This document shows positions 2,461 to 35,896 of a stretch of 64,000 nt of DNA, piece by piece (the first letter of the stretch is position 1; every line of letters begins with the position of its first letter). The notes below the pieces were generated by a model. It saw nothing but the letters and a program-made list of their open reading frames with translations, was not told the DNA's origin and did no database searches. The translations under genes were made by a program, and so were the position numbers. Origin of the DNA: Flavobacteriales bacterium (GTDB lineage Bacteria > Bacteroidota > Bacteroidia > Flavobacteriales_F > PHOS-HE28); contig JBGAGX010000003.1 in the NCBI GenBank assembly GCA_044226515.1, positions 136,721 through 200,720 of the forward strand. The letters are read 5' to 3'.

Positions 2461-4173
2461 ATGAAAAAACTATACGCTACGCTGACGGCCATCCTGGCCA
2501 TGGCCACCGTGCAGGCCCAGGTGGTCTTCTCCGTGGAGGCGCCGTCGGCACTGCAAGGCAACTACGCTTTCACCTATCCCGCCCAAGGATCGGGCTGGGG
2601 CTGCCCGGACCTGTTGATCCCGGCCAATGCCGTGCTGGACACGGCGGTCTTCGCCTTCGATGACACCGCCGCCGATTCCCTGGCCTGCGACACGGTGGTG
2701 AACGTGGCCCAGGTGACCGGAAAGATCGCGGTCGTGTACCGTGGCTCCTGCAACTTCAGCCTGAAAGCGCTGATGTGCCAGAACGCCGGTGCCGTGGCCG
2801 TGGTGATCATCAACAACATCCCCGGCCCGCCCGTGGGCATGGGCGCCGGCACCTATGGCGCCGATGTCACCATCCCCGTGGCCATGATCTCCGATGCGGA
2901 CGGTGCGCTCCTGCGACCCGAGATCGAGGCTGGGAACGTGGTGATCTTCCTGGGCAACAAGCAGGGCCTGTACGACGAGGACCTCGGTTTCTACAAGCCG
3001 GACATCCAGATGGCGAAGTCCACCGGCCGCCCGAAGTTGGTGAGCAACGATGGCACCGAGTTCTCGGTACGTCCGGCCTGCTGGGTGCATAACTACGGGA
3101 ACAATGACCAGACCGGTGTGAGCGTGACCGCCACGATCTCGCAGAACGGCACCGCCCTGTACACCGAGACGGCCACGGCCGTGGACATCATCTCCGGTGA
3201 CAGCTCCTTCTTCACCATGCCGGAGTTCACACCGGGCAGCTGGGACGGTTACTACACCTTGGACTACCAGATCAACATGGGTGCGACCGATGAGTATCCG
3301 GGGGACAACGCCTTCTCCTCGGCGTTCGTGGTCGATTCCGTGCTCGCGTACGGTGTGGTCGATGAAGTGACCGGGCTGCCGACGCCGGGACCCCACTACC
3401 GTCCGAGCACCTCCACCACCAGCTTCACCAGCTGCCTGAGCTTCATGGACGCCAACGCCAGCCGCATGGCCGCCATGGGCCTTTACACCTCCGCGGTGGC
3501 CGCCACCGGCGGAACCCTCGAAGGGGAGTACCTGGAGACCACTGCCTACCAGTGGGACGACGTCTTCACCGGGATCAGCGATGCCAACTTCGGCTTCAAC
3601 AGCCTTACCCCGGTGGGCAGCGGCGAGTACACCTACAATGCCGACCTCCCCAACGAGCGCATCTACATCCCCTTCTTCGACCCGGTGATGCTGCAGGACA
3701 ACACGCGCTACCTGTTCTGTGTGACCACGTACAGCACCACGGTGTACCTGGGTTATGACGACACGTACGACTACGACGAGAACATCACCTACGACGACCA
3801 GCCGGTGAGCCCGATCAGCAACGACGGCACCTGGTACGGCCTCGGCTTCGGCACGGACGTGACCTCCGCCGTGGGCGTGCTGATGGGCAACTTCGACGTG
3901 AGCGTGAACGAGACGGCCGCCATGCAGACCGTGAACGCCTACCCGAACCCCGCAACCGACCGCGTGTGGCTTGACGTGGCCGGCATGAGCGGCACCGGCA
4001 CGCTGATCGTGCGCGACGCGATGGGTCGCGAGGTGAGCGCCCAGCGCCTGCAACTGGGTACCGACCGCAAGGTGGACATGAGCGTGGGCGACCTGTCCAA
4101 CGGCGCCTACCTCTTCGAACTGCGCGATGCCGCCGGCAAGGTGCGCAGCTTCCGCGTGGTGGTGGCCCGCTGA
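2461..4173 (+). CDS. Secreted PA-domain protein with T9SS type A C-terminal sorting domain
   Basis: Signal peptide MKKLYATL...AQAQ; PA domain GKIAVVYRGSCNFSLKALMCQNAGAVAVVIINN; C-terminal AYPNPATD...LSNGAYLFEL. Confidence 0.8.
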   Translation: MKKLYATLTAILAMATVQAQVVFSVEAPSALQGNYAFTYPAQGSGWGCPDLLIPANAVLDTAVFAFDDTAADSLACDTVVNVAQVTGKIAVVYRGSCNFSLKALMCQNAGAVAVVIINNIPGPPVGMGAGTYGADVTIPVAMISDADGALLRPEIEAGNVVIFLGNKQGLYDEDLGFYKPDIQMAKSTGRPKLVSNDGTEFSVRPACWVHNYGNNDQTGVSVTATISQNGTALYTETATAVDIISGDSSFFTMPEFTPGSWDGYYTLDYQINMGATDEYPGDNAFSSAFVVDSVLAYGVVDEVTGLPTPGPHYRPSTSTTSFTSCLSFMDANASRMAAMGLYTSAVAATGGTLEGEYLETTAYQWDDVFTGISDANFGFNSLTPVGSGEYTYNADLPNERIYIPFFDPVMLQDNTRYLFCVTTYSTTVYLGYDDTYDYDENITYDDQPVSPISNDGTWYGLGFGTDVTSAVGVLMGNFDVSVNETAAMQTVNAYPNPATDRVWLDVAGMSGTGTLIVRDAMGREVSAQRLQLGTDRKVDMSVGDLSNGAYLFELRDAAGKVRSFRVVVAR

Positions 4174-4192
4174 ACGGACCCCCGAACGAATG

Positions 4193-4226
4193 ACGAAGGC
4201 CCTCCGCACCTGCGGGGGGCCTTCGT
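4193..4226. terminator. Hairpin between convergent genes (bidirectional terminator candidate)
   Basis: ACGAAGGCCCTCCGCA-CC-TGCGGGGGGCCTTCGT, a 16-bp stem with one G-U pair. Confidence 0.7.
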
Positions 4227-4229
4227 GCT

Positions 4230-4826
4230 TCAGCGCCGGAAGATGAGCTGGATGGTGGAGGCGATGATCCGCAGGTCGAGCCAGAAGCTGCGCTCCCGCA
4301 CGTACCGCAGGTCGAGCGCGATCTTCGCCGGCATCACCTCCTCGATGTAGGTGCGCTCCGGATCGGTGGAACGCGCGAGCAGCTCGTTCTCGTCCACGTA
4401 GTCCATGCTGGCCATGCCCGTGATGCCGGGGCGAACGCTCAGGACCTGGCGCTGCTCGGGCGTGTACAGCGCCACGTAGCGCGGCACCTCCGGGCGGGGG
4501 CCTACGATGCTCATGTCGCCCACGAGCACGTTCACCAGCTGCGGCAGTTCATCAAGCTTGGTCTTCCGCAGGAAATAGCCCACCGAGGTGATCCGTGGAT
4601 CCCGGCCGCCGATGGTGAGCTGACCCTTGGCCTCGCTATCGGGGCGCATGCTCCGGAACTTCAGCAGCCTGAACGCACGTCCGTTCCGCCCCACCCGCAC
4701 CTGCCGGAAGAAGGCCCCACCCGGCGAAGTGAGCGCCACGGCCAGGGCGAAGACCAGCAGGACGGGCAGCAGCACCGCCAGGGCCACCAGGGCGAACACC
4801 AGGTCGAAGGCGCGCTTGATCAGCAT
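4230..4826 (-). CDS. Bacterial sugar transferase (polyprenyl-phosphate glycosylphosphotransferase)
   Basis: KRAFDL, FRLLKFRSM, LRKTKLDELPQLVNVLVGDMSIVGPRPE motifs. Confidence 0.92.
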   Translation of the reverse strand: MLIKRAFDLVFALVALAVLLPVLLVFALAVALTSPGGAFFRQVRVGRNGRAFRLLKFRSMRPDSEAKGQLTIGGRDPRITSVGYFLRKTKLDELPQLVNVLVGDMSIVGPRPEVPRYVALYTPEQRQVLSVRPGITGMASMDYVDENELLARSTDPERTYIEEVMPAKIALDLRYVRERSFWLDLRIIASTIQLIFRR

Positions 4827-26217: not shown

Positions 26218-27306
26218 ATGCCTCCCTTGCTCTCCTTCACCCCGCACGGCATCTGGTGCGCGCAGGCCGATGTGTACATCGACCCCTGGCGTCCGGTGGA
26301 CCGCGCCATCATCACCCATGCGCACAGCGACCACGCCCGACGCGGCAGCCGAAGCTACTTGGCATCCCCCGTGACCAAGGCCCTGATGCACGCGCGGCTG
26401 GGGGATGACCTGCGCATCGATACCCTGCAGCCTGGGCAGAGCGGAACCATCAACGGGGTGAAGTTCTCGCTCCATCCGGCCGGCCACATCCCTGGCAGCA
26501 TGCAAGTGCGCGTGGAACACCAAGGCGAAGTGTGGGTGGCCACTGGCGACCACAAGCGTCACGCTGATGGCATCAGCGACGCCTTCGAGCCGGTTCGCTG
26601 CCACACGCTCATCACCGAATGCACTTTCGGGCTGCCCATCTACCGCTGGAAGGAGCCGAAGGAGGTGTTCGCCGAGATCAACGGGTGGTGGCGGGGCAAT
26701 GCGGATAAGGGGGTGTGCTCGGTGATCAGCGCATACAGCTTGGGCAAGGCCCAGCGCGTGATGACCGGCGTGGACCGGAGCATCGGCCCCATCCTGGTGC
26801 ACGGCGCCGTGGCCAACATGAACTCGGTGCTGCTGGACTGCGGGCTGGAGCTGCCGCCGTGGGAGCACATCACGAAGGACACACCAAAGGAGCGCTTCCG
26901 CAACGCGCTCGTGATCACGCCGGGCTCGGCCTTGGACACTCCGTGGACCAACCGCATGAAGCCCTTCAGCACGGCCATGGCGAGCGGCTGGATGCAACTG
27001 CGCGGCTGGCGACGGCGCAGCAGCATCGAACGCGGCTTCGTGCTGAGCGACCACGCCGACTGGGACGCGCTGCTGCTGGCCGTGAAGGAGAGCGGCGCCG
27101 AACGCGTGATCGCCACCCACGGGTACACGGACCTGTTCAGCCAGTACCTGCGGAGCGTCGGGTACGACGCGACCGCGGAATCGACCGAGTTCGCAGGTGA
27201 AGGAGGTTCCGAACAGGTCGCCGACGTACCCGATGGCACCCGTAGCGTCGACCCGGTCATCCCGGCCTTGAGCCGGGAGGGTCGACCCGAAACGCCAACG
27301 CCATGA
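26218..27306 (+). CDS. Ligase-associated DNA damage response exonuclease (metallo-beta-lactamase/beta-CASP)
   Basis: YIDPWRPV, ITHAHSDHA, AGHIPGS, ITECTFGLP, SDHADW. Confidence 0.92.
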   Translation: MPPLLSFTPHGIWCAQADVYIDPWRPVDRAIITHAHSDHARRGSRSYLASPVTKALMHARLGDDLRIDTLQPGQSGTINGVKFSLHPAGHIPGSMQVRVEHQGEVWVATGDHKRHADGISDAFEPVRCHTLITECTFGLPIYRWKEPKEVFAEINGWWRGNADKGVCSVISAYSLGKAQRVMTGVDRSIGPILVHGAVANMNSVLLDCGLELPPWEHITKDTPKERFRNALVITPGSALDTPWTNRMKPFSTAMASGWMQLRGWRRRSSIERGFVLSDHADWDALLLAVKESGAERVIATHGYTDLFSQYLRSVGYDATAESTEFAGEGGSEQVADVPDGTRSVDPVIPALSREGRPETPTP

Positions 27307-28913
27307 ACCGGGAGGCCGCGTTGTTCGATGCACTGGATTCCACCACGGCCACCAGCGCCAAGGTGGAGGCGCTTGCCTCGTATTTCCGCGAAGCGGACGA
27401 TGCCGACAAGCTATGGGTGATCGCGCTGCTCAGCGGGCGACGACCGAAACGCCCGGTGACCAGCACCAAGCTGCGCCAATGGGCCGCGCAGGTCAGCGGC
27501 ATCCCCGACTGGCTCTTCGAGGCCAGCTACCACGTGGTGGGCGACTTCGCCGAGACCGTGACGCACATCGCGAAGCTCGAAGGGCCCGTGATGAAGAGCC
27601 TGACGGATTGGGTGCGGTACGTGGAGGCACTGAAGGACCTGCCCGAGGAGGAGAAGGCCGTCCGCGTGAAAGCTGCGTGGGCCGGGATGGAAGGCATGGA
27701 GCTCTTCGTGTTCAACAAGATCATCACCGGCGGCTTCCGCATCGGGGTGAGCCAGAAGGTGATGGTGAAGGGTCTGAGCAAGGCCACCGGCGTTGACGAG
27801 GACACCCTTGCGCACCGGCTAATGGGCGACTGGAGCCCGCACAGCACCACCTTCCACGACCTGGTGCTCGGTGCCAACGAAGGCGACGACCACAGCCGAC
27901 CCTATCCCTTCTACCTGGCCTACGGCATCGAGGGACCCGAGGGGATGGCCGCCGGGGCCGGGCTGGAGGACCTGCTGCCCCTGGGCGACCCGCGCGAATG
28001 GCAGGCCGAGCACAAGTGGGACGGGATACGTGGGCAGCTGATCGTGCGCGGCGGAAAGCCTTACGTGTGGAGCCGCGGCGAGGAATTGGTGACGGACAAG
28101 TACCCGGAGCTCGAGGCGTTGGGCAGGGCCCTGCCATCCGGCACCGTGCTCGATGGCGAGATCCTTGCGTGGAAGGACCGTGCGCCCCTCCCCTTCGCCG
28201 AGCTGCAGAAGCGCATCGGGCGCAAGAGCGTGGGGAAGAAGCTGCTGGCCGATGTGCCCGTGGTCTTCATGGCCTACGACCTGATGGAGCATGCGGGCGA
28301 GGACATCCGCCAGCGGCCGCTCAGCGAACGGCGTGCGCTGCTGGAGGAGATCGTCTCCACGGCCGCACATCCGGTGCTCACCCTCTCGCCCACCCTGTCC
28401 TTCACTTCGTGGGAGGAGGTCGTGGCCCATCGTGAACAGGCCCGCACAGCGAGCATCGAGGGACTGATGTTGAAGCGGCTCACCAGTGCGTATGAGGTGG
28501 GCCGTCGCCGCGGTGATTGGTGGAAGTGGAAGGTGGATCCGCTGAGCATCGACGCGGTGCTCACCTTCAGCATGCAGGGCCACGGCCGCCGCGCCGACCT
28601 CTACACCGACCACACCTTCGGGCTGTGGCATGAAGGACAGCTGGTCACCTTTGCCAAGGCCTACAGTGGCCTCACCGATGCGGAGATGCTGGAGGTGGAC
28701 GCCTTCGTGAAGAAGAACACGGTGGAGCGCTTCGGTCCGGTTCGACAAGTCGTTCCCGAACTGGTGTTCGAGGTCGCGTTCGAGGGCATCAGCGCCAGCA
28801 CGCGGCATAAGAGCGGCGTGGCGGTGCGTTTTCCGCGCATCGCGCGGTGGCGCAGGGACAAGAAGGCCGAGGAGGCGAACACGCTCGACGACCTGAAAGC
28901 GATGATCAGATGA
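27303..28913 (+). CDS. ATP-dependent DNA ligase
   Basis: Adenylation motif EHKWDGIRGQ, LDGE, EGLMLK, WWKWK, FPRIARWR.DK. Confidence 0.95.
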   Translation: MNREAALFDALDSTTATSAKVEALASYFREADDADKLWVIALLSGRRPKRPVTSTKLRQWAAQVSGIPDWLFEASYHVVGDFAETVTHIAKLEGPVMKSLTDWVRYVEALKDLPEEEKAVRVKAAWAGMEGMELFVFNKIITGGFRIGVSQKVMVKGLSKATGVDEDTLAHRLMGDWSPHSTTFHDLVLGANEGDDHSRPYPFYLAYGIEGPEGMAAGAGLEDLLPLGDPREWQAEHKWDGIRGQLIVRGGKPYVWSRGEELVTDKYPELEALGRALPSGTVLDGEILAWKDRAPLPFAELQKRIGRKSVGKKLLADVPVVFMAYDLMEHAGEDIRQRPLSERRALLEEIVSTAAHPVLTLSPTLSFTSWEEVVAHREQARTASIEGLMLKRLTSAYEVGRRRGDWWKWKVDPLSIDAVLTFSMQGHGRRADLYTDHTFGLWHEGQLVTFAKAYSGLTDAEMLEVDAFVKKNTVERFGPVRQVVPELVFEVAFEGISASTRHKSGVAVRFPRIARWRRDKKAEEANTLDDLKAMIR

Positions 28914-28934
28914 TCAGACGATCAGACGATCAGA
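28903..28934 (+). repeat. Tandem 8-mer (YGATCAGA) x4 at the ligase/helicase junction
   Basis: TGATCAGA TGATCAGA CGATCAGA CGATCAGA read directly. Confidence 0.9.
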
Positions 28935-31468
28935 TAATGGCTGGCTCGGCGCCGCTCGATGCGTGGTTCATCGCCCAAGGCTGGAGCCCGCAGCCCTTCC
29001 AGCGGGAGGTGTGGGCCCACATGGCTGAAGGGCGCAGTGGCTTGCTGAACGCACCCACCGGCACCGGCAAGACCTATGCGGTCTGGGGTGGTGTGGTGAA
29101 TCACGCGCTTGTCACTCCGGCCATGAGCCGAAGACGCGTAAAGGCTGACCCCGCGATGCCGGGGCCTTCGACAGGCTCAGGCGCCCGGCACGACGATCCC
29201 AAAGGACTGCGCGCCATCTGGATCACGCCCCTGCGCGCGCTGGCCGGCGAGATCGCGGAGAGCGCACAACGCATGTGTGATGGCGTGGGCCTGGACTGGA
29301 AGGTGGGCGTACGCACGGGCGACACCAGCACCAAGGAGCGCGCGGCGCAGAAAAAGGCGCTGCCCCAGCTGCTCGTCACCACACCCGAAAGCCTGCACGT
29401 GCTGCTGGCCACCAAAGGTTACGCGGAGCTTTTCAAGCACCTCGACTGGTTCATCGCCGACGAGTGGCACGAGCTGTTGGGCAGCAAGCGCGGCGTGCAG
29501 GTGGAGCTGGCCCTGAGCCGCCTGAAGGCCTTGCGCCCGCAGCTGGGCATCTGGGGCATCAGCGCGACGATCGGGAACCTGGAGGAGGCGCGGGATGTGC
29601 TGATGGGCGTGCAAGCGTCAAGTCGCAAGGGTCAAGTGTCAAATGACAAGCGATCAGCTGTTCCGCCGGTGCTTGTGCGCAGCACCATCAAGAAACCCAT
29701 TGAGGTCCGCAGCATCATCCCCGAAGAAGTGGAGCGCTACCCCTGGGCCGGGCACCTGGGCCTGAAGCTGGCGCATCGCCTGCTGCCGATCATCGAGCAG
29801 AGCACCAGCACGCTGATCTTCACCAACACCCGCGCGCAGAGCGAGATCTGGTACCATCATCTGCTCGACATCGCGCCGGAGCTGGCGGGCACGATCGCCC
29901 TGCACCACGGCAGTCTGGACCGCGACGTGCGCGAATGGGTGGAGAAGGCGCTGGACGAAGGGCGGCTGAAGGCCGTGGTGTGCACCAGCAGCCTGGACCT
30001 GGGCGTTGACTTCCGTCCGGTGGAGACCGTGGTGCAGGTGGGCGGACCCAAGGGCGTGGCGCGCTTCGTGCAACGCGCCGGGCGCAGCGGGCACCGCCCG
30101 GATGCCGTGAGCCGCATCTGGTTCCTGCCCACGCACGCGCTGGAGCTGGTGGAGGCCTCCGCACTGCGCCAGGCCGCCGAGGAAGGGAGCATCGAGGCGC
30201 GCCAGCCGTTGTTCCGCTGCTTCGATGTGCTGGCGCAATACCTGGTGACCCTGGCCGTGAGCGACGGCTTCTACCCCGCCGCGCTCTACGACGAAGTGCG
30301 ATCGACCTGGTGCTTCCAGGACATCACGCCCGAGGAATGGGACTGGCTGCTCACCTTCATCACCACGGGAGGAAAGAGCCTCACGGCCTACGAGGAGTTC
30401 CGCAAGGCCGTGGTGGATGAGGACGGCATGGTCCGCGTACACGACCGCCGCATCGCGCTGCGCCACAAGCTCAGCATCGGCACCATCGTGGGCAGCGAGA
30501 GCTACGCGGTGAAGTTGATCGGCGGCGGGCGTATCGGCACGGTGGAGGAATGGTTCATCAACCAGCTGAAGCCCGGCGACGTGTTCTGGTTCGCGGGGCG
30601 CAGCCTGGAATTCGTGCGTGTGCAGGGGCTGGTGGCGCAGGTGCGCAAGAGCCGCGAGCAGAAGGGCAAGATCCCCAGCTGGCAGGGCGGCCGCATGCCC
30701 CTGAGCAGCTACATGGCCAAGGTGCTGCGCGCGCAGCTCACCGATCCCGGAAGCAACGTGGAGATGGCCGCCGTGCAGCCCATCCTGGAGCGCCAGCGCG
30801 AAACGAGCATCGTACCCAGCGAGGACGAGCTGCTGATCGAGCGCTTCGAGAGCCGCGAGGGGCACCACGTGGTGATCTACCCCTTCGAGGGGCGTTTGGT
30901 GCACGAGGCCATGGGCTCGCTCCTCGCCTTCCGCATGAGCCTGCTGAAGCCCATCACCTTCAGCATCGCCATGAACGACTACGGCTTCGAGCTGCTCAGC
31001 GACCAGCCCATCCCCATCGAGGAGGCGCTGGACAACGACCTGTTCAGTCCGCAGGACCTGCTGAGCGACCTGCAGCGCAGCCTCAACGCCACCGAAATGG
31101 CCAAGCGCAAGTTCCGCGACATCGCCAGCATCGCGGGGCTCGTGTTCAAGGGCATGCCCGGGCGTCCGCTGAAGGAGCGCCACATGCGCGCCAACAGCGG
31201 CCTCTTCTTCGATGTGTTCCGCGAGCACGAGCCCGACCACCTGCTGCTGCGCCAGGCCTACGACGAGGCTTTCGATGTGCAGATGGAACTGCCGCGCATG
31301 CGCGAAGCCTTGGAGCGCATCCAGCGCCAGCGCATCGTGCTGAAGGACCCGGGCCGGTTCACGCCCTTCGCCTTCCCCATCCTCGTGGACCGCCTGCGCG
31401 AGAAGCTCACCAGCGAGCAGTTGGAAGATAGGATCCGGAAGATGACGGAGCGGTTGGAGAAGGCGTGA
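28910..31468 (+). CDS. Ligase-associated DEXH-box (Lhr-like) helicase
   Basis: APTGTGKT, TPESL, DEWHEL, SAT, HHGSL, QRAGRSGH; start at ATG 28910 (ATGA overlap) or ATG 28937. Confidence 0.92.
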   Translation: MIRRSDDQIMAGSAPLDAWFIAQGWSPQPFQREVWAHMAEGRSGLLNAPTGTGKTYAVWGGVVNHALVTPAMSRRRVKADPAMPGPSTGSGARHDDPKGLRAIWITPLRALAGEIAESAQRMCDGVGLDWKVGVRTGDTSTKERAAQKKALPQLLVTTPESLHVLLATKGYAELFKHLDWFIADEWHELLGSKRGVQVELALSRLKALRPQLGIWGISATIGNLEEARDVLMGVQASSRKGQVSNDKRSAVPPVLVRSTIKKPIEVRSIIPEEVERYPWAGHLGLKLAHRLLPIIEQSTSTLIFTNTRAQSEIWYHHLLDIAPELAGTIALHHGSLDRDVREWVEKALDEGRLKAVVCTSSLDLGVDFRPVETVVQVGGPKGVARFVQRAGRSGHRPDAVSRIWFLPTHALELVEASALRQAAEEGSIEARQPLFRCFDVLAQYLVTLAVSDGFYPAALYDEVRSTWCFQDITPEEWDWLLTFITTGGKSLTAYEEFRKAVVDEDGMVRVHDRRIALRHKLSIGTIVGSESYAVKLIGGGRIGTVEEWFINQLKPGDVFWFAGRSLEFVRVQGLVAQVRKSREQKGKIPSWQGGRMPLSSYMAKVLRAQLTDPGSNVEMAAVQPILERQRETSIVPSEDELLIERFESREGHHVVIYPFEGRLVHEAMGSLLAFRMSLLKPITFSIAMNDYGFELLSDQPIPIEEALDNDLFSPQDLLSDLQRSLNATEMAKRKFRDIASIAGLVFKGMPGRPLKERHMRANSGLFFDVFREHEPDHLLLRQAYDEAFDVQMELPRMREALERIQRQRIVLKDPGRFTPFAFPILVDRLREKLTSEQLEDRIRKMTERLEKA

Positions 31469-31493
31469 ACGTCCCCTCGGGGCCGCTTCGCTG

Positions 31494-31530
31494 GTTTTGA
31501 GTTTTCTAAAGTTGTACTTTAGGATTCTCA
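31494..31530. repeat. 37-bp dyad-symmetric element, copy 1
   Basis: GTTTTGAGTTTTCTAAAGTTGTACTTTAGGATTCTCA; core CTAAAGT-TGT-ACTTTAG. Confidence 0.9.
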
Positions 31531-31533
31531 AAC

Positions 31534-32706
31534 ATGCGCTACACCGACCGCGACCTTGGGAACGTCCTGTTGAAGGCCTCCCGCTCCTTCCCCGCCGTGG
31601 TGCTCACGGGTCCGCGCCGCGCGGGCAAGACCGTGCTGCTGCGGAAGCTCTTTCCCAAGGCCTCATATACCCTGCTGGAGGACCCCGACGTGATCGCCCG
31701 CATGCGCGCCGACCCGCAGGGCTTCCTCGATGAGCTGAAGCTGCCCGCGATCCTCGACGAGGTGCAGAACGTGCCCGAGCTCTTCTCCTACGTACGCTCC
31801 CGCATCGACCAAAACCCACGGCGCACGGGTCAGTGGTTCCTCACCGGCTCGCAGGAGGCCGCGCTCATGGGCGGTGTCACCGAATCGATGGCGGGGCGCG
31901 CGGCCGTGCTGCAGCTGTACCCCTTGTCCATCACGGAATCGCCGCGCGTGGGCCTGCTGCACGGCGGCTACCCCGAGGCCATAGCGCGGCCCAAGGGTGC
32001 GGGGCTGTGGTTCAGCAGCTACGTGCAGACCTACCTGGAGCGTGATGTGCGCGCCGTGACCAACGTGCGCGATCTGGCCACCTTCCGGCGCTTCATGGCC
32101 CTACTGGCCACCCGGCACGGGCAGGTGCTCAACCGCACCGAGCTGGCCGCTCCGTTGGGCGTGAGCGTGCCCACCATCAACCAGTGGCTGGGCGTGCTGG
32201 AGACCACCCAGCAGCTGCTCATCGTGCCGCCCTTCTACGAGAACCTGGGCAAGCGCCTCATCAAGTCGCCCAAGGTGTACTACGCCGACAGCGGGCTGGC
32301 CTGCCACCTGCTGGGCATCACCACGGCGGACGAGCTGGAGCGCTCGCCCTTCCTGGGCGCCCTGTGGGAGGGCTTCGTGGCCGCCGAGCTCATCAAGCGG
32401 CAGGTGAACAGCGGCCAGCGCCGCGCGCTCTACCACTTCCGCGACCAGCAGGGGCTGGAGGTGGACTTCCTGGTGCCCACGCCCAACGGCGGGGTGGACA
32501 TGATCGAGTGCAAGGCCTCGCGCACACCCGTGCCCGGCATGGCCGCCGCATTGGCACAGCTCACCAAGGCCTTCGAAGAAAAGCGCAGGCTCGCCCGCCC
32601 CGCACGTTGCTTCATCCTGCACCGGAAGGGCGACCGGCGAACGCCGGAAAGCCTTGCCCATGGCGTGAAAGCGATGGAGCTGGCGGCGTGGTTGGAGCGG
32701 GCTTAA
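31534..32706 (+). CDS. AAA+ ATPase with DUF4143 domain
   Basis: Walker A GPRRAGKT, ILDEVQ, LTGSQ, GGYPE, YLERDV, KSPKVYYADSGL, EVDF..IECK. Confidence 0.9.
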   Translation: MRYTDRDLGNVLLKASRSFPAVVLTGPRRAGKTVLLRKLFPKASYTLLEDPDVIARMRADPQGFLDELKLPAILDEVQNVPELFSYVRSRIDQNPRRTGQWFLTGSQEAALMGGVTESMAGRAAVLQLYPLSITESPRVGLLHGGYPEAIARPKGAGLWFSSYVQTYLERDVRAVTNVRDLATFRRFMALLATRHGQVLNRTELAAPLGVSVPTINQWLGVLETTQQLLIVPPFYENLGKRLIKSPKVYYADSGLACHLLGITTADELERSPFLGALWEGFVAAELIKRQVNSGQRRALYHFRDQQGLEVDFLVPTPNGGVDMIECKASRTPVPGMAAALAQLTKAFEEKRRLARPARCFILHRKGDRRTPESLAHGVKAMELAAWLERA

Positions 32707-32717
32707 GACTCTGGGCT

Positions 32718-32754
32718 GTTTTGAGGTTTTTAAAGTTGTACTTTAGGAATCTCA
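32718..32754. repeat. 37-bp dyad-symmetric element, copy 2
   Basis: GTTTTGAGGTTTTTAAAGTTGTACTTTAGGAATCTCA, 34/37 identical to copy 1. Confidence 0.9.
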
Positions 32755-32795
32755 TGAACGGGCACGCCCGCCATCGTACTTCCACGCGGCCCTTT

Positions 32796-33051
32796 CCGGT
32801 CACTTGTGAAGCATCGGCCACTGCGCCATCCGCCGTACGCCGGACCACCCACCCCTTGGAGCAAGGCACCCACCTTCGCTACATTCAGGCCCTGTTGGGG
32901 CACGCCAGCAGTAAGATACCTTCGCCAAGGCTACGGAGAACAAAGAGAGAGCTACACCCACGTGTCCGCCATAGCTTCAGCGACGGCGGATGTGAGCACC
33001 CGCTACCTGCAAGGCATCGTGAACCCCATGGACAACTTGGACACACCTTGA
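32796..33051 (+). pseudogene. C-terminal remnant of a tyrosine recombinase (integron-integrase-like tail)
   Basis: Fragments across two frames: PVT..LRH..YA..TH.LEQGT.LRYIQALLGHASSK..YTHVS..TRYLQGIVNPMDNL*; interrupted by palindromic inserts. Confidence 0.8.
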
Positions 33052-33182
33052 CGACATCTTCGTCAAAACCTTCGTAAAACCAACCCCAATTGACCGATAG
33101 CACGAAGATCCTCCACAGCCGATACTTCCGGCGATAAACGAAGATCTTCGTATACCCAACGTTAGCTGCAAGCTCACAAACT

Positions 33183-33641
33183 ATGACTAGAAAAGTTATT
33201 ATGAAAGTAACTTTTGCCGTACTCTCTTGTTTCTTATTAACCAGCTGTTACTTTGGCGCAAATGAATCAGGAGGAGAAATAGTAAACAATGTTTACAGCG
33301 CTAGATGGGATGATGACTCCTGGATTTCCTATAGCAAAAATGGCGATGGTATTTGGGATCCGGAAAACGTTATAGTTCGTCATCAAGTTTTTGCAATTGG
33401 GGACTATGATGACTTTATTATCGCAAAACAGCATCCCTGCAAAAACAAACAACCTCACACCATTGACTTTGACGATTTAAAGCCTGACAAAGACATTACT
33501 ATTTATGTAATCATAGATACAAGAAACGACAGCTACATAGTGCATCGTTATCAAAATGAAAATGATTTCAATGAAGCAAAATCGCAATTTGGGATTCCTG
33601 TTAATTTGACTTACAAGTTTTACGCTAAAGAAATTGATTAA
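33183..33641 (+). CDS. AT-rich lipoprotein (DUF3997-like), putative gene cassette ORF
   Basis: Lipobox LTSC; IGDYDDFIIAKQHP motif; strongly AT-rich relative to the flanks. Confidence 0.75.
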   Translation: MTRKVIMKVTFAVLSCFLLTSCYFGANESGGEIVNNVYSARWDDDSWISYSKNGDGIWDPENVIVRHQVFAIGDYDDFIIAKQHPCKNKQPHTIDFDDLKPDKDITIYVIIDTRNDSYIVHRYQNENDFNEAKSQFGIPVNLTYKFYAKEID

Positions 33642-33648
33642 CACCAGC

Positions 33649-33708
33649 AGCTAACAAAGTGTATAGTGCATCCCCTGCGGGATACGCACCATACACAGAA
33701 CGTTGAAC
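33649..33708 (+). mobile_element. attC-like (59-be-like) recombination site
   Basis: AGCTAAC, then the GTGTATAGTGC / GCACCATACAC inverted pair, central ATCCC-CTGC-GGGAT, then GTTGAAC; 60 bp. Confidence 0.75.
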
Positions 33709-33867
33709 GCAATCGCTCGCAGGGCCTCGCGCCGGCGTTCAACACTTGAATGACCACCGCCTGTAGGGAGCACGCGCCGCCCGCTCAGCCCCCCAAGGAT
33801 CGCCGAACCCCGTCCCTGCCGTTCGCCGCTGACCCCGCATCTTCGGGCTGCACCGATCGCCATCCGC

Positions 33868-35166
33868 ATGCGTCCCCCCGCCCTGCTGACCGCCCTCAGC
33901 CTCTGCATCAACGTCCACGCCCAAGGCCCCGACCTGGTGGGCTACTGGCACAACTGGAACGACGGCAACGTGCCCTATCTGGAGCTTAGCCAGGTGGACC
34001 CGCGCTACACGGTGATCGAGGTGAGCTTCGCCGTACCTGCGGCGGGCAGCACGTCCGACATGGTGTTCGCCCCGGCCGAGACCGCGCCCGCCACCTTCAT
34101 CGCCGATGTGGCCGCACTGCAGGCCCAGGGGAAGAAGGTCCTGATCAGCATCGGCGGTGCCAACGCCACGGTGCATTTGGACAGCGATGCCGAGCGCGAC
34201 CAGTTCGTGAGCAGCATGCTGGGCATCCTCGACACTTACGGCTTCGACGGCATCGACATCGACCTGGAGGGCGCGTCGGTGGCCATCAGCGGCGGCACCA
34301 TCGCCAACCCCACCGATGCCCGCATCACCCGCCTGATCGACGCGGTGAACAGCATCGCCGACCAGTACGAGGCCGCGAACGGCGTGCCGATGATGCTGAC
34401 CATGGCCCCGGAGACCGCCTACGTACAGGGCGGCATGAGCGCGTACGGCGGCATCTGGGGCGCGTACCTGCCGGTCATCGATGCACTGCGGAACCGGCTG
34501 GACATCCTGCAGGTGCAGTTGTACAACAGCGGCAGCCTATACGGCATCGACGGTGGCATCTACACCCAGGGCACGGCCGACTTCATCGTGAGCCAGACCG
34601 AGGCACTGCTGCAGGGCTTCACCACGGGCGGCGGCTTCTTCGCGCCGCTGCCGCCGGAGAAGGTGGCCATCGGCCTGCCCGCCTGTCCGCTCGCGGCCGG
34701 TGGCGGCTACGTTTCGCCTGCCGTGCTGGGGCAGGCCGTGGACTACCTGCGCGGCGCGGGTCCGCAGCCGGGCAGCTACCAACGTGTGGCCACCTACCCC
34801 ACCCTGCGCGGGTTGATGACCTGGAGCATCAATTGGGACGCGGTGAGCACCTGCGCCGCGGCCGACGAGTACGCCCAGGCCTATGCGGACATCTTCGGCA
34901 TTTCGACCGCGGTGGCGGAACCGTCCGATGCGGGCGTCCTCATCGGGCCCGTTCCGGTGGCGACGGGTGAACCGCTGTCCATCCGCGGGCTGCGGCCGGG
35001 CGATGCCGTACGGCTGCTCGATGCCACGGGTCGCCTGGTGCTCGAGACCGGAGCGCGTTCCGCCGTTCAGGACCTGAGGATCGACCAAGCCCCGGGCCTG
35101 TGCACCGTGAGCGTGCTGCGGGCCGGCACGGTGGTGCATGTGCAGCGCGTGGTGGTGATGCCTTGA
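33868..35166 (+). CDS. Secreted GH18 chitinase with probable degenerate T9SS CTD
   Basis: LVGYWHNW, KKVLISIGGA, catalytic FDGIDIDLE, QLYNSG, GLMTWSINWD. Confidence 0.88.
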   Translation: MRPPALLTALSLCINVHAQGPDLVGYWHNWNDGNVPYLELSQVDPRYTVIEVSFAVPAAGSTSDMVFAPAETAPATFIADVAALQAQGKKVLISIGGANATVHLDSDAERDQFVSSMLGILDTYGFDGIDIDLEGASVAISGGTIANPTDARITRLIDAVNSIADQYEAANGVPMMLTMAPETAYVQGGMSAYGGIWGAYLPVIDALRNRLDILQVQLYNSGSLYGIDGGIYTQGTADFIVSQTEALLQGFTTGGGFFAPLPPEKVAIGLPACPLAAGGGYVSPAVLGQAVDYLRGAGPQPGSYQRVATYPTLRGLMTWSINWDAVSTCAAADEYAQAYADIFGISTAVAEPSDAGVLIGPVPVATGEPLSIRGLRPGDAVRLLDATGRLVLETGARSAVQDLRIDQAPGLCTVSVLRAGTVVHVQRVVVMP

Positions 35167-35212
35167 GCCGTGGCACTTGCCTGCCATGGTCGGCCCGCGC
35201 TACCTTGGGCTC

Positions 35213-35896
35213 ATGCTCACGGCGGAGATCGACCTTGCGGGTGAACGGATGGTGCTGAGCCCCTACCGTGCGCTGTATTGGCCACGCATGCGCTGGCTCT
35301 TGCTGAGCGACGCCCACCTGGGCAAGGCGGCGCACTTCCGCAAGGCCGGCCTTCCGCTCCCCGACGTGCACGACGACCAGCTGCTGGACCGGCTCGGCTG
35401 GCTGATCCGGGAGTACGGTGCGGACCGGGTGGTGGTGCTCGGCGACCTGTTCCACAGCGCCTACAACAGCAGCTGGGACCTCTTTCAGCTCTGGCTGGAG
35501 CGGGTGCCCTGCGAGGTGCACCTGGTGCTGGGCAACCACGACGTGCTCGCCGACCGGCGTTACCTGGAGGCGGGACTGAAGCTCCACGACGAGGTGCTGC
35601 TGGAGGGCCCCTTCGCGCTCACCCACGAGCCCCGCCTCGTTCCCGGGCACTATACCCTGGCCGGCCACCTGCACCCCGGTGTGCACCTGGAGGGCCTGGG
35701 GCGCCAGCACCTGCGGCTGCCCTGCTTCTGGTTCGGGGCTGAACGGGGCGTGGTGCCGGCCTTCGGCACCGCCACCGGCCTGCATGTGGTGGAGCCGGCC
35801 CCGCTCGACCGCTGCTTCGCCGTGACCGAGCGCAGCGTGATCGACGTGAGCGGGCTGCAGGGCGCCCGCCGGGCCCAACGGGGCCGCACCTCCTGA
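35213..35896 (+). CDS. pdeM: Ligase-associated DNA damage response metallophosphoesterase/endonuclease
   Basis: LLSDAHLGKA, VLGDLFH, LGNHD, THEP, AGHLHP, PAFG. Confidence 0.85.
   Translation: MLTAEIDLAGERMVLSPYRALYWPRMRWLLLSDAHLGKAAHFRKAGLPLPDVHDDQLLDRLGWLIREYGADRVVVLGDLFHSAYNSSWDLFQLWLERVPCEVHLVLGNHDVLADRRYLEAGLKLHDEVLLEGPFALTHEPRLVPGHYTLAGHLHPGVHLEGLGRQHLRLPCFWFGAERGVVPAFGTATGLHVVEPAPLDRCFAVTERSVIDVSGLQGARRAQRGRTS

Follow-up and report, generated by a model that had tools for sequence, protein, structure and literature searches.

A single-gene segment between two dyad repeats

Within a 64,000-nucleotide (nt) stretch of a Flavobacteriales genome (the window; all coordinates are positions within it), the segment 31494-32754 holds one gene, encoding an ATPase-nuclease of the PDC-S01/COG1373 family, between two copies of a 37-nt repeat with dyad symmetry. 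We refer to the segment as the cassette and to the genome of the window as G000; other G-labels denote genomes of genus relatives, and L-labels denote compared loci or contigs. The features of the cassette are as follows.

31494-31530, + strand: dyad repeat copy 1 (GTTTTGAGTTTTCTAAAGTTGTACTTTAGGATTCTCA), promoter-operator-like, directly upstream of the ATPase gene; arms TTGAGTTTTCTAAAGT and ACTTTAGGATTCTCAA around the spacer TGT
31497-31502, + strand: -35-like hexamer TTGAGT, its position read from the sequence and the family-wide pattern
31520-31525, + strand: -10-like hexamer TAGGAT, 17 nt past the -35-like hexamer and 8 nt before the ATG
31534-32706, + strand: ATPase-nuclease open reading frame (ORF), 390 amino acids; AAA+ ATPase, winged helix and PD-(D/E)xK nuclease
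32464-32466, 32506-32508 and 32512-32514, + strand: nuclease-motif codons D311, E325 and K327, respectively
32718-32754, + strand: dyad repeat copy 2 (GTTTTGAGGTTTTTAAAGTTGTACTTTAGGAATCTCA), downstream boundary of the cassette

The two copies lie in direct orientation, start 1224 nt apart and are identical at 34/37 positions; the layout of each is TTGAG-N5-TAAAGT, TGT, ACTTTA-N5-CTCA. Copy 1 stops 3 nt short of the ATG at 31534, and copy 2 starts 11 nt past the TAA stop of the ATPase ORF. The last A of copy 2 (32754) is the first base of another ATG, whose frame enters a frameshifted C-terminal remnant of a tyrosine recombinase containing LEQGTHLRYIQALLGHASSK. On re-reading, everything that an earlier note had read directly from this sequence holds (37-bp dyads, 34/37 identity, 1224-nt spacing, distances to ATG and stop, ATG overlap and protein motif). 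With at most 2 mismatches allowed, the window contains the 15-nt core twice, compared to an expectation of 0 from 100 shuffles, and in the genome-wide search that the note had proposed, an 18-mer with at most 3 mismatches matched only these two sites across the whole 3.77-Mb assembly. The copies are unique to the locus, and a genome-wide repeat of the repetitive extragenic palindrome (REP) or miniature inverted-repeat transposable element type is ruled out, as the assembly holds two copies only. The repeat also seemed to reach into the 3' ends of lhr, the gene upstream, and of the ATPase gene (19/25 match), but this was judged to be chance: many GC-rich matches are of equal quality, and the C-terminal end of the ATPase belongs to the family itself.

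The protein clearly belongs to PDC-S01/COG1373 (AAA_14 plus DUF4143). It matches the Pfam models AAA_14 (PF13173, residues 20-135, 1.7e-23) and DUF4143 (PF13635, full model, 2.6e-47) and, end to end, the PADLOC family model PDC-S01 (PDLC04790, 7e-99), and shares the family layout of ATPase, winged helix and PD-(D/E)xK nuclease. Its Walker A motif (GPRRAGKT) and the motif E309-V-D311 ... E325-C-K327 do not vary across nine aligned homologues with 35-72% identity to the ORF. An AlphaFold model (predicted local distance difference test, pLDDT, 88) comprises an AAA+ core, a lid, a winged helix (approximately residues 180-260) and, at the C-terminus, a nuclease fold; among solved structures, the closest in fold are an archaeal Walker ATPase (2qen), MalT, Card1/Cdn1, RFC, Orc1/Cdc6 and RuvB. 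Judged from this model, the ATPase-nuclease plausibly binds DNA sequence-specifically. A sequence search for solved structures of the family gave no match, and a look-up of the exact protein for further contexts returned no record. Family members are located on 307 plasmids. PADLOC lists the family only as a phage defence candidate, which makes an anti-phage role of the gene a candidate function. DUF4143 is catalogued as a PD-(D/E)XK family of unknown function (PMC3424549); the literature on DUF4143/COG1373 yielded catalogue mentions only, and no experimental paper on family function was found.

A promoter-like dyad that accompanies the family

Among homologues sampled by protein similarity (one genome per species), those 56-72% identical to the ORF are scattered over at least 10 phyla, which indicates frequent horizontal transfer. 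Almost all of the close-homologue subgroup carry the dyad, ending 1-3 nt before the start codon, and it precedes homologues of 55-94% identity in Binatia, Nitrospira, Acidobacteriota, Verrucomicrobiota, Planctomycetota, Kiritimatiellota, Elusimicrobia, Gemmatimonadota and others. The family consensus is TTGAG-N5-TAAAGT-N3-ACTTTA-N5-CTCAA, directly before the start codon, and 56 aligned relatives share this register. Distant homologues (~40% identical) have other, private palindromes at the same place, e.g., CTTGCAATNNTGCATT-N3-AATGCANNATTGCAAG. Scanning metagenomes by the dyad pattern alone recovered 80 contigs, ~55 of them with an ATPase homologue immediately beside the dyad.

The upstream regions also share a promoter-like arrangement. 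The pattern TTGA[CG]N-17 nt-TANNNT-6..8 nt-start codon is present in 48/74 distinct upstream regions, compared to 3/3700 shuffles, and 47 of these 48 have a hexamer spacer of exactly 17 nt. It leaves no room for a ribosome-binding site before the start codon and is the layout of a sigma-70-type promoter whose transcript would begin at the start codon. In the window, the placement of the -10-like hexamer likewise implies a leaderless or near-leaderless mRNA, with a predicted transcription start. The dyad spans the -35-like hexamer, the -10-like hexamer and the start region in the same 48/74 relatives, and thus overlaps the gene's own putative core promoter, as autoregulatory dyad operators do. 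The earlier note had offered, as one of two readings, a duplicated operator/promoter bound by the ATPase. At the sequence level this reading stands, in that family members share the dyad as a conserved promoter-like element whose register with the start codon is fixed; the protein may bind it, as that reading also supposed.

The symmetry of the dyad goes beyond what a promoter needs. The blocks TAAAGT, in the promoter spacer, and CTCA, at the predicted transcription start, are mirror images of ACTTTA and TTGAG, and a sigma-70 promoter requires neither. Across the 56 aligned upstream copies, arm positions pair at 84.6% (79.6% in shuffles), and 55 cells are changed on both sides (28 ± 3.7 in shuffles); 0/500 shuffles reached either value. 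Pairing falls to 26-50% when partner columns are slid by 1-3 positions. The pairs that switch on both sides are 5-31, 6-30, 8-28, 10-26 and 15-21. Carriers of the 15/21 switch from G-C to C-G are no closer to one another than to the rest, and their recognition helix is unchanged. These paired switches, with the helix unaltered, show that the symmetry itself is preserved. It could be kept by a symmetric binder that tolerates those positions, by hairpin/cruciform formation or by mutational correction of quasi-palindromes.

Cassette boundaries, a one-repeat allele and the insertion site

One relative, L197, is collinear with positions 30663-32755 of the window (lhr-dyad-ATPase-dyad), and past copy 2 it continues into an unrelated membrane-protein gene. 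Homology to cassettes in other contexts (L227 at 81% nucleotide identity, L182, L220, L217 and L175) begins at 31489-31497, so that homology breaks at the repeat edges. A closer relative, L201, a contig from activated sludge, has lhr, the same 26-nt spacer, a single dyad, the upstream region of GH18 and GH18 itself at 89% identity. The left arm of this single dyad matches copy 1 at 16/16 positions vs. 14/16 for copy 2, while its right arm with the next 5 nt (CTCATGAAC) matches copy 2 at 19/20 vs. 14/20 for copy 1. This is the empty-site allele with one repeat that the earlier note had predicted, and it is a hybrid of copy 1 and copy 2 arms. The lhr genes are 94.0% identical between L201 and the window, 89.0% between L197 and the window and 88.1% between L197 and L201, and the L197 cassette is as diverged as its lhr. 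The simplest history would be an ancestor with lhr-dyad-ATPase-dyad, from which the L201 lineage lost the gene by recombination between the dyads. L201 is unlikely to be an assembly artefact: the exact stretch it shares is below the usual final k-mer, and its sequence runs on into DNA not present after copy 2 in either G000 or L197. The pentamer TGAAC stands after copy 2 (32755-32759) and also after the solo dyad of L201, which may be coincidence.

Other candidate empty sites were less exact. Among 40 relatives searched, G023 has a solo dyad beside a PhyH-like gene at a variable site after an ABC-F gene, where G012 and G046 carry the cassette; it is not precise and was rejected as a precise empty site. 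In G018, G017 and G020 the site after lhr has no dyad, with different DNA in each genome and no precise junction, and comparison of the G012 insertion with G004 gave no target duplication beyond the dyads. In three metagenome loci (L160, L180 and L192) a solo dyad is followed by only the first 4-30 ATPase codons (MRYP..., MRYVHRELEGP..., MRHVD...), indicating that the gene is also lost by imprecise deletions that spare the promoter dyad.

The dyad-ATPase-dyad arrangement occurs in three species of the genus (G000, G012 and G046), in the latter two at a different site, beside the 3' end of the ABC-F gene. It is also found in L031, L044 and L104 and in at least 12 distinct metagenome loci, a sample selected by the dyad, which inflates the share of downstream copies. 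Relative to the stop codon, the position of the downstream copy ranges between -4 and +182 nt, and its orientation is direct in the window, L197 and L227 and inverted in L220 and L182. In L220 (6014-7441) the ATPase gene stands between dyads that are perfect inverted copies of one another (35/35), resembling terminal inverted repeats. A further contig, L168 (166-970), has two dyads ~770 nt apart with a short ORF of a different kind and no ATPase gene between them; these dyads may bracket other cargo, or the locus may be a decayed cassette.

G000 and L197 share 89.0% identity in lhr and 90.0% in the ATPase gene. Copy 1 matches at 34/37 positions and its adjoining non-coding spacer at 10/26; copy 2 matches at 33/37 and the spacer between stop codon and repeat at 2/11. 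Since the dyads are conserved and the spacers scrambled, copy 2 has been under selection, or has been repeatedly corrected against copy 1, since G000 and L197 split. Concerted evolution of the two copies was considered and found weak: identity within genomes is not above that between genomes, the exception being the derived arm GGGAAT present in both G012 copies. As palindromes, downstream copies surpass upstream ones (mean fold energy -16.0 vs. -11.4 kcal/mol), which fits a promoter constraint on the upstream copy alone; in the window, the -10-like hexamer of copy 2 is degraded to TAGGAA. Sense-strand RNA of copy 2 folds into a 21-bp hairpin (-22.7 kcal/mol vs. -7.2 for antisense). The sense strand of downstream copies folds better than the antisense by at least 4 kcal/mol in 8/16 loci and is never clearly worse; these 16 loci represent ~5 independent lineages, and the bias is only suggestive of selection on copy 2 at the RNA level.

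Flanking repeats are in excess across the family. Of 80 family genes, 16 are flanked on both sides, at no more than 250 nt, by direct repeats of 20 nt or longer, compared to 1/112 neighbouring ORFs (Fisher p = 3.5e-6). Where such repeats are not dyads, they duplicate the 3' end of the upstream gene together with its stop codon (L030, 67/70; L033, 37/40; L068, 52/55; L108, 26/29). In L094 (~2800-4376), a homologue of ~42% identity that has a palindrome of its own lies between duplicated copies (36/38) of a tRNA 3' end, in a unit of ~1.5 kb with no integrase. The repeated sequence differs by locus, being the gene's own promoter dyad in the window and duplicated 3' ends of neighbouring genes at other family loci. 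Restriction-modification genes have been reported to show an excess of flanking repeats and 'insertion with long target duplication' (Furuta 2010, PMC2853133), and the flanking repeats of the PDC-S01/COG1373 family appear to match that pattern. In G023 (L025, G023:C182 1-900; L147, G023:C10) the last 137 nt of the ABC-F gene are present twice, at 86% identity, around an insert of ~830 bp; the insert protein is PIN-domain-like by eye only, and a solo dyad of the ATPase type lies ~1 kb further on.

The cassette is located in a ligase-associated repair cluster with an ATP-dependent ligase (27303-28913), Lhr (28847-31468) and a PdeM-like phosphoesterase (35177-35896). In five genus genomes (L119, L123-L126) lhr is followed directly by the phosphoesterase gene, which is therefore the ancestral arrangement. 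The junction 31469-35176 of the window has gathered GH18, the ATPase cassette, the recombinase remnant and an AT-rich gene. What follows lhr is GH18 in G020, a small membrane-protein gene and then the tail of the recombinase remnant in G018, and a convergent beta-propeller gene in G017. As every close relative differs after lhr, the junction is an insertion hot spot inside a DNA-repair operon. In G020 (L117, G020:C50, ~2080-2170), the last ~30 nt of lhr (AAGATGAC.GAGC..TGGA..AGG) are present twice, ~40 nt apart, extending the Lhr frame, which resembles a scar left when an earlier insertion duplicated its target at this hot spot. One neighbouring feature lies next to copy 2.

32790-33051, + strand: frameshifted C-terminal remnant of a tyrosine recombinase; context, outside the cassette, starting 35 nt past copy 2

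This remnant is part of a ~1-kb insertion (~32760-33790) that also carries an AT-rich DUF3997 gene. The insertion is absent from L197 and L201, so it was a later insertion beside copy 2 and not a part of the cassette; the last ~40 nt of the remnant are shared with G018. No homology to the remnant was found in the metagenome loci, and no tyrosine-recombinase signature was found in 20 dyad-ATPase-dyad loci by a crude motif scan without a positive control in the data. In five of the dyad-ATPase-dyad loci the neighbours are housekeeping genes (NDK, succinyl-CoA ligase, DUF4153 and LssY_C). The DUF3997 lipoprotein gene (33183-33641), which follows the remnant, has 38% GC in a genome of 67% GC and is bracketed by the inverted 19-mers TATACCCAACGTTAGCTGC and GCAGCTAACAAAGTGTATA (33151-33665).

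A probable gain/loss cassette with a duplicated promoter-operator

We interpret 31494-32754 as a self-contained, single-gene gain/loss cassette of the PDC-S01/COG1373 family bounded by a duplicated promoter-operator, with a probability of roughly 0.6. Copy 1 would be a compact sigma-70-type promoter, with a transcription start at or next to the ATG giving a leaderless mRNA in need of no ribosome-binding site; such an mRNA could allow expression in many hosts. Because its symmetry exceeds promoter need, the dyad would have an extra role, either as a binding site, most likely for a dimer or oligomer of the cassette's own winged-helix protein (autoregulation), or as a hairpin/cruciform element. 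Copy 2 would be a duplicate that forms the 3' boundary, having lost the -10 consensus and kept the dyad, and is probably a second binding site and/or a 3' hairpin insulating the gene. As the two copies are direct repeats, recombination between them, by the host's homologous recombination or by the cassette's own nuclease, would remove the gene precisely and leave one hybrid dyad. In the reverse direction, a circle with one dyad entering a solo dyad would install the gene.

Several observations weigh against this interpretation. Downstream copies have a frequency of roughly one in ten: in the sample drawn by protein similarity they are present in 3/37 close homologues (~8%), so copy 2 is not essential to the gene. 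The one-repeat allele is represented by a single metagenome contig. Plain deletion or ordinary recombination between 37-bp direct repeats would yield the same allele, which therefore does not prove an active cycle of excision and integration. The window's own hexamers, TTGAGT and TAGGAT, score only 8/12 and were not called by a consensus promoter scan. The host is of the Flavobacteriales type and its main sigma factor prefers TTTG/TAnnTTTG, and with this different host consensus, use of the predicted promoter in the present host is uncertain. Finally, variable dyad positions gave no signal of covariation with the recognition helix of the winged-helix domain, and the 15/21 G/C switch arose several times; this would favour base-pairing or mutational symmetrisation over a co-evolving protein specificity.

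The low frequency of downstream copies is also what one would expect if copy 2 were a functionless by-product, left by the promoter of a lost tandem gene or by a local duplication, with the one-repeat allele an ordinary deletion and only the upstream copy having a role. The degraded -10-like hexamer of copy 2 agrees with this, as do three loci (L049, L052 and L215) with a second copy further upstream instead and the messy decay seen in the many solo dyads beside truncated ATPase starts. We nevertheless consider a by-product unlikely, since between G000 and L197 copy 2 shows the same degree of conservation as copy 1 amid scrambled spacers, downstream copies are the better palindromes and recur in several unrelated lineages and in both orientations, both G012 copies share the derived arm, and past copy 2 there is no sign of another ATPase gene in G000, L197, G012 or G046. 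The other reading in the earlier note, a one-gene excisable module delimited by tyrosine-recombinase sites, survives in its first part, given the hybrid one-repeat allele and the homology edges at the repeats, and not in its mechanism. With inverted arms of 13-16 nt and a spacer of 3-7 nt between them, the dyad does fit the geometry of core sites on which a tyrosine or other site-specific recombinase would act in trans, the hybrid allele resembles an attB or recombination product, and a remnant 35 nt past copy 2 could be the leftover enzyme of an integron-like arrangement. Yet the remnant is missing from L197 and L201, at the same locus, and from G012 and G046; the crude scan of the 20 loci found no recombinase; the downstream copy varies in orientation and in distance from the stop codon; the boundaries have no GTTRRRY-type integron core; and the fixed start-codon register and promoter hexamers of the upstream copy would be superfluous in a pure recombination site. 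We consider this mechanism very improbable.

A bolder alternative is that the ATPase-nuclease itself mobilises an autonomous one-gene element, cutting its own palindromes (perhaps as cruciforms or hairpins), forming an excision circle and inserting at solo dyads or gene 3' ends. Several observations speak for it: no recombinase or transposase stands beside the 20 dyad-ATPase-dyad loci, where the neighbours examined are housekeeping genes; the family extends across phyla at 60-72% identity and onto 307 plasmids; direct repeats flank 20% of its genes vs. 1% of neighbours, and the non-palindromic ones are duplicated 3' ends of the upstream gene or a tRNA; unit boundaries coincide with dyads; the residues of the nuclease motif do not vary; the dyad keeps its symmetry as though base-pairing were important; and the L220 terminal copies are perfect inverted repeats. 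The family has no biochemical precedent, however, nor a solved structure by sequence search, and most members have the upstream dyad only. Host recombination together with transfer on other vehicles could explain both the patchiness and the precise loss, and the family is a phage-defence candidate, defence genes generally having high turnover. Self-mobilisation is therefore doubtful here. Its broadest form, in which PDC-S01 with its palindromic promoter would be an unrecognised class of autonomous one-gene mobile elements, the protein binding its own dyad, possibly as an extruded cruciform, and cutting it for precise excision and re-insertion at solo dyads or gene 3' ends, and the leaderless promoter allowing expression of the gene in whichever phylum it enters, is more doubtful still. 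Compared to these alternatives, we favour the gain/loss cassette bounded by a duplicated promoter-operator.

A close parallel to such a cassette is found in the long-target-duplication units described by Furuta 2010 (PMC2853133). These are small defence-type genes without a mobility gene, with an excess of flanking repeats of at least 30 bp, in many cases overlapping an adjacent gene or tRNA at its 3' end, and the insert-free relative holds one repeat copy. The PDC-S01 family shows each of these traits. The cassette likewise has a 37-nt flanking direct repeat with two copies in the genome, and L201 is insert-free with one copy at the same site. It differs in that the repeat of the window is the gene's own promoter-like dyad, travelling across phyla, instead of anonymous target DNA, and in that some loci have inverted copies. 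Autorepressed dyad operators of toxin-antitoxin systems and restriction-modification controller proteins also place a dyad over -35, -10 and start and encode a winged-helix product (predicted in our case), but in the cassette the dyad is duplicated downstream of the gene and its symmetry is kept without matching changes in the recognition helix.

Other systems share only part of the anatomy. Integron cassettes also consist of a single ORF bounded by imperfect palindromes, are units of gain and loss and leave a solo site where the cassette is absent. No integron integrase is present at PDC-S01 dyad loci, however, where the window has only the frameshifted remnant, and there are no arrays. The boundaries of the window read GTTTTGAG...CTCA, without the R'/R'' core GTTRRRY / RYYYAAC, and the dyad lies upstream of the gene with a putative promoter, whereas integron cassettes are mostly promoterless with attC downstream. 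A lox/dif-like core site has inverted arms, an asymmetric spacer of 6-8 bp, a defined orientation and a cognate recombinase. Arms are present in the dyad, with a spacer of 3 nt (7 nt in another reading), and downstream copies occur in both orientations; the crude regular-expression scan of the 20 loci found no linked recombinase motif. Genes flanked by palindromic repeats are also typical of REP elements or bacterial interspersed mosaic elements (BIMEs) with their REP-associated tyrosine transposases (RAYTs), but here the genome has two copies only, no HUH/Y1 transposase is present, and the enclosed gene encodes an AAA+ ATPase-nuclease. By these defining features the cassette is not an integron cassette, a recombinase core site with a linked enzyme or a REP/RAYT unit.

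In the literature searched we found no paper on a palindromic promoter or bracketing repeats of PDC-S01/COG1373. Relative to that literature, the new elements are the putatively leaderless promoter dyad that travels with the family, its duplication as a 3' boundary and the natural hybrid allele with one repeat. AAA_14-DUF4143 proteins (COG1373, PDC-S01) are among the commonest uncharacterised 'ATP-binding proteins' in bacterial and archaeal genomes, and to our knowledge nothing is known of their control or spread. Our analysis provides a testable picture of both, with a portable promoter-operator dyad, a second dyad that closes the unit, a one-repeat allele and a family-wide excess of flanking repeats without a mobility gene. 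If the protein does act on its own dyads, the cassette would be a new minimal mobile element and the dyad the first known DNA target of a nuclease of this family. Otherwise, the locus would be a clear example of single defence-type genes gained and lost at hot spots, extending the pattern described for restriction-modification genes to a new gene family.

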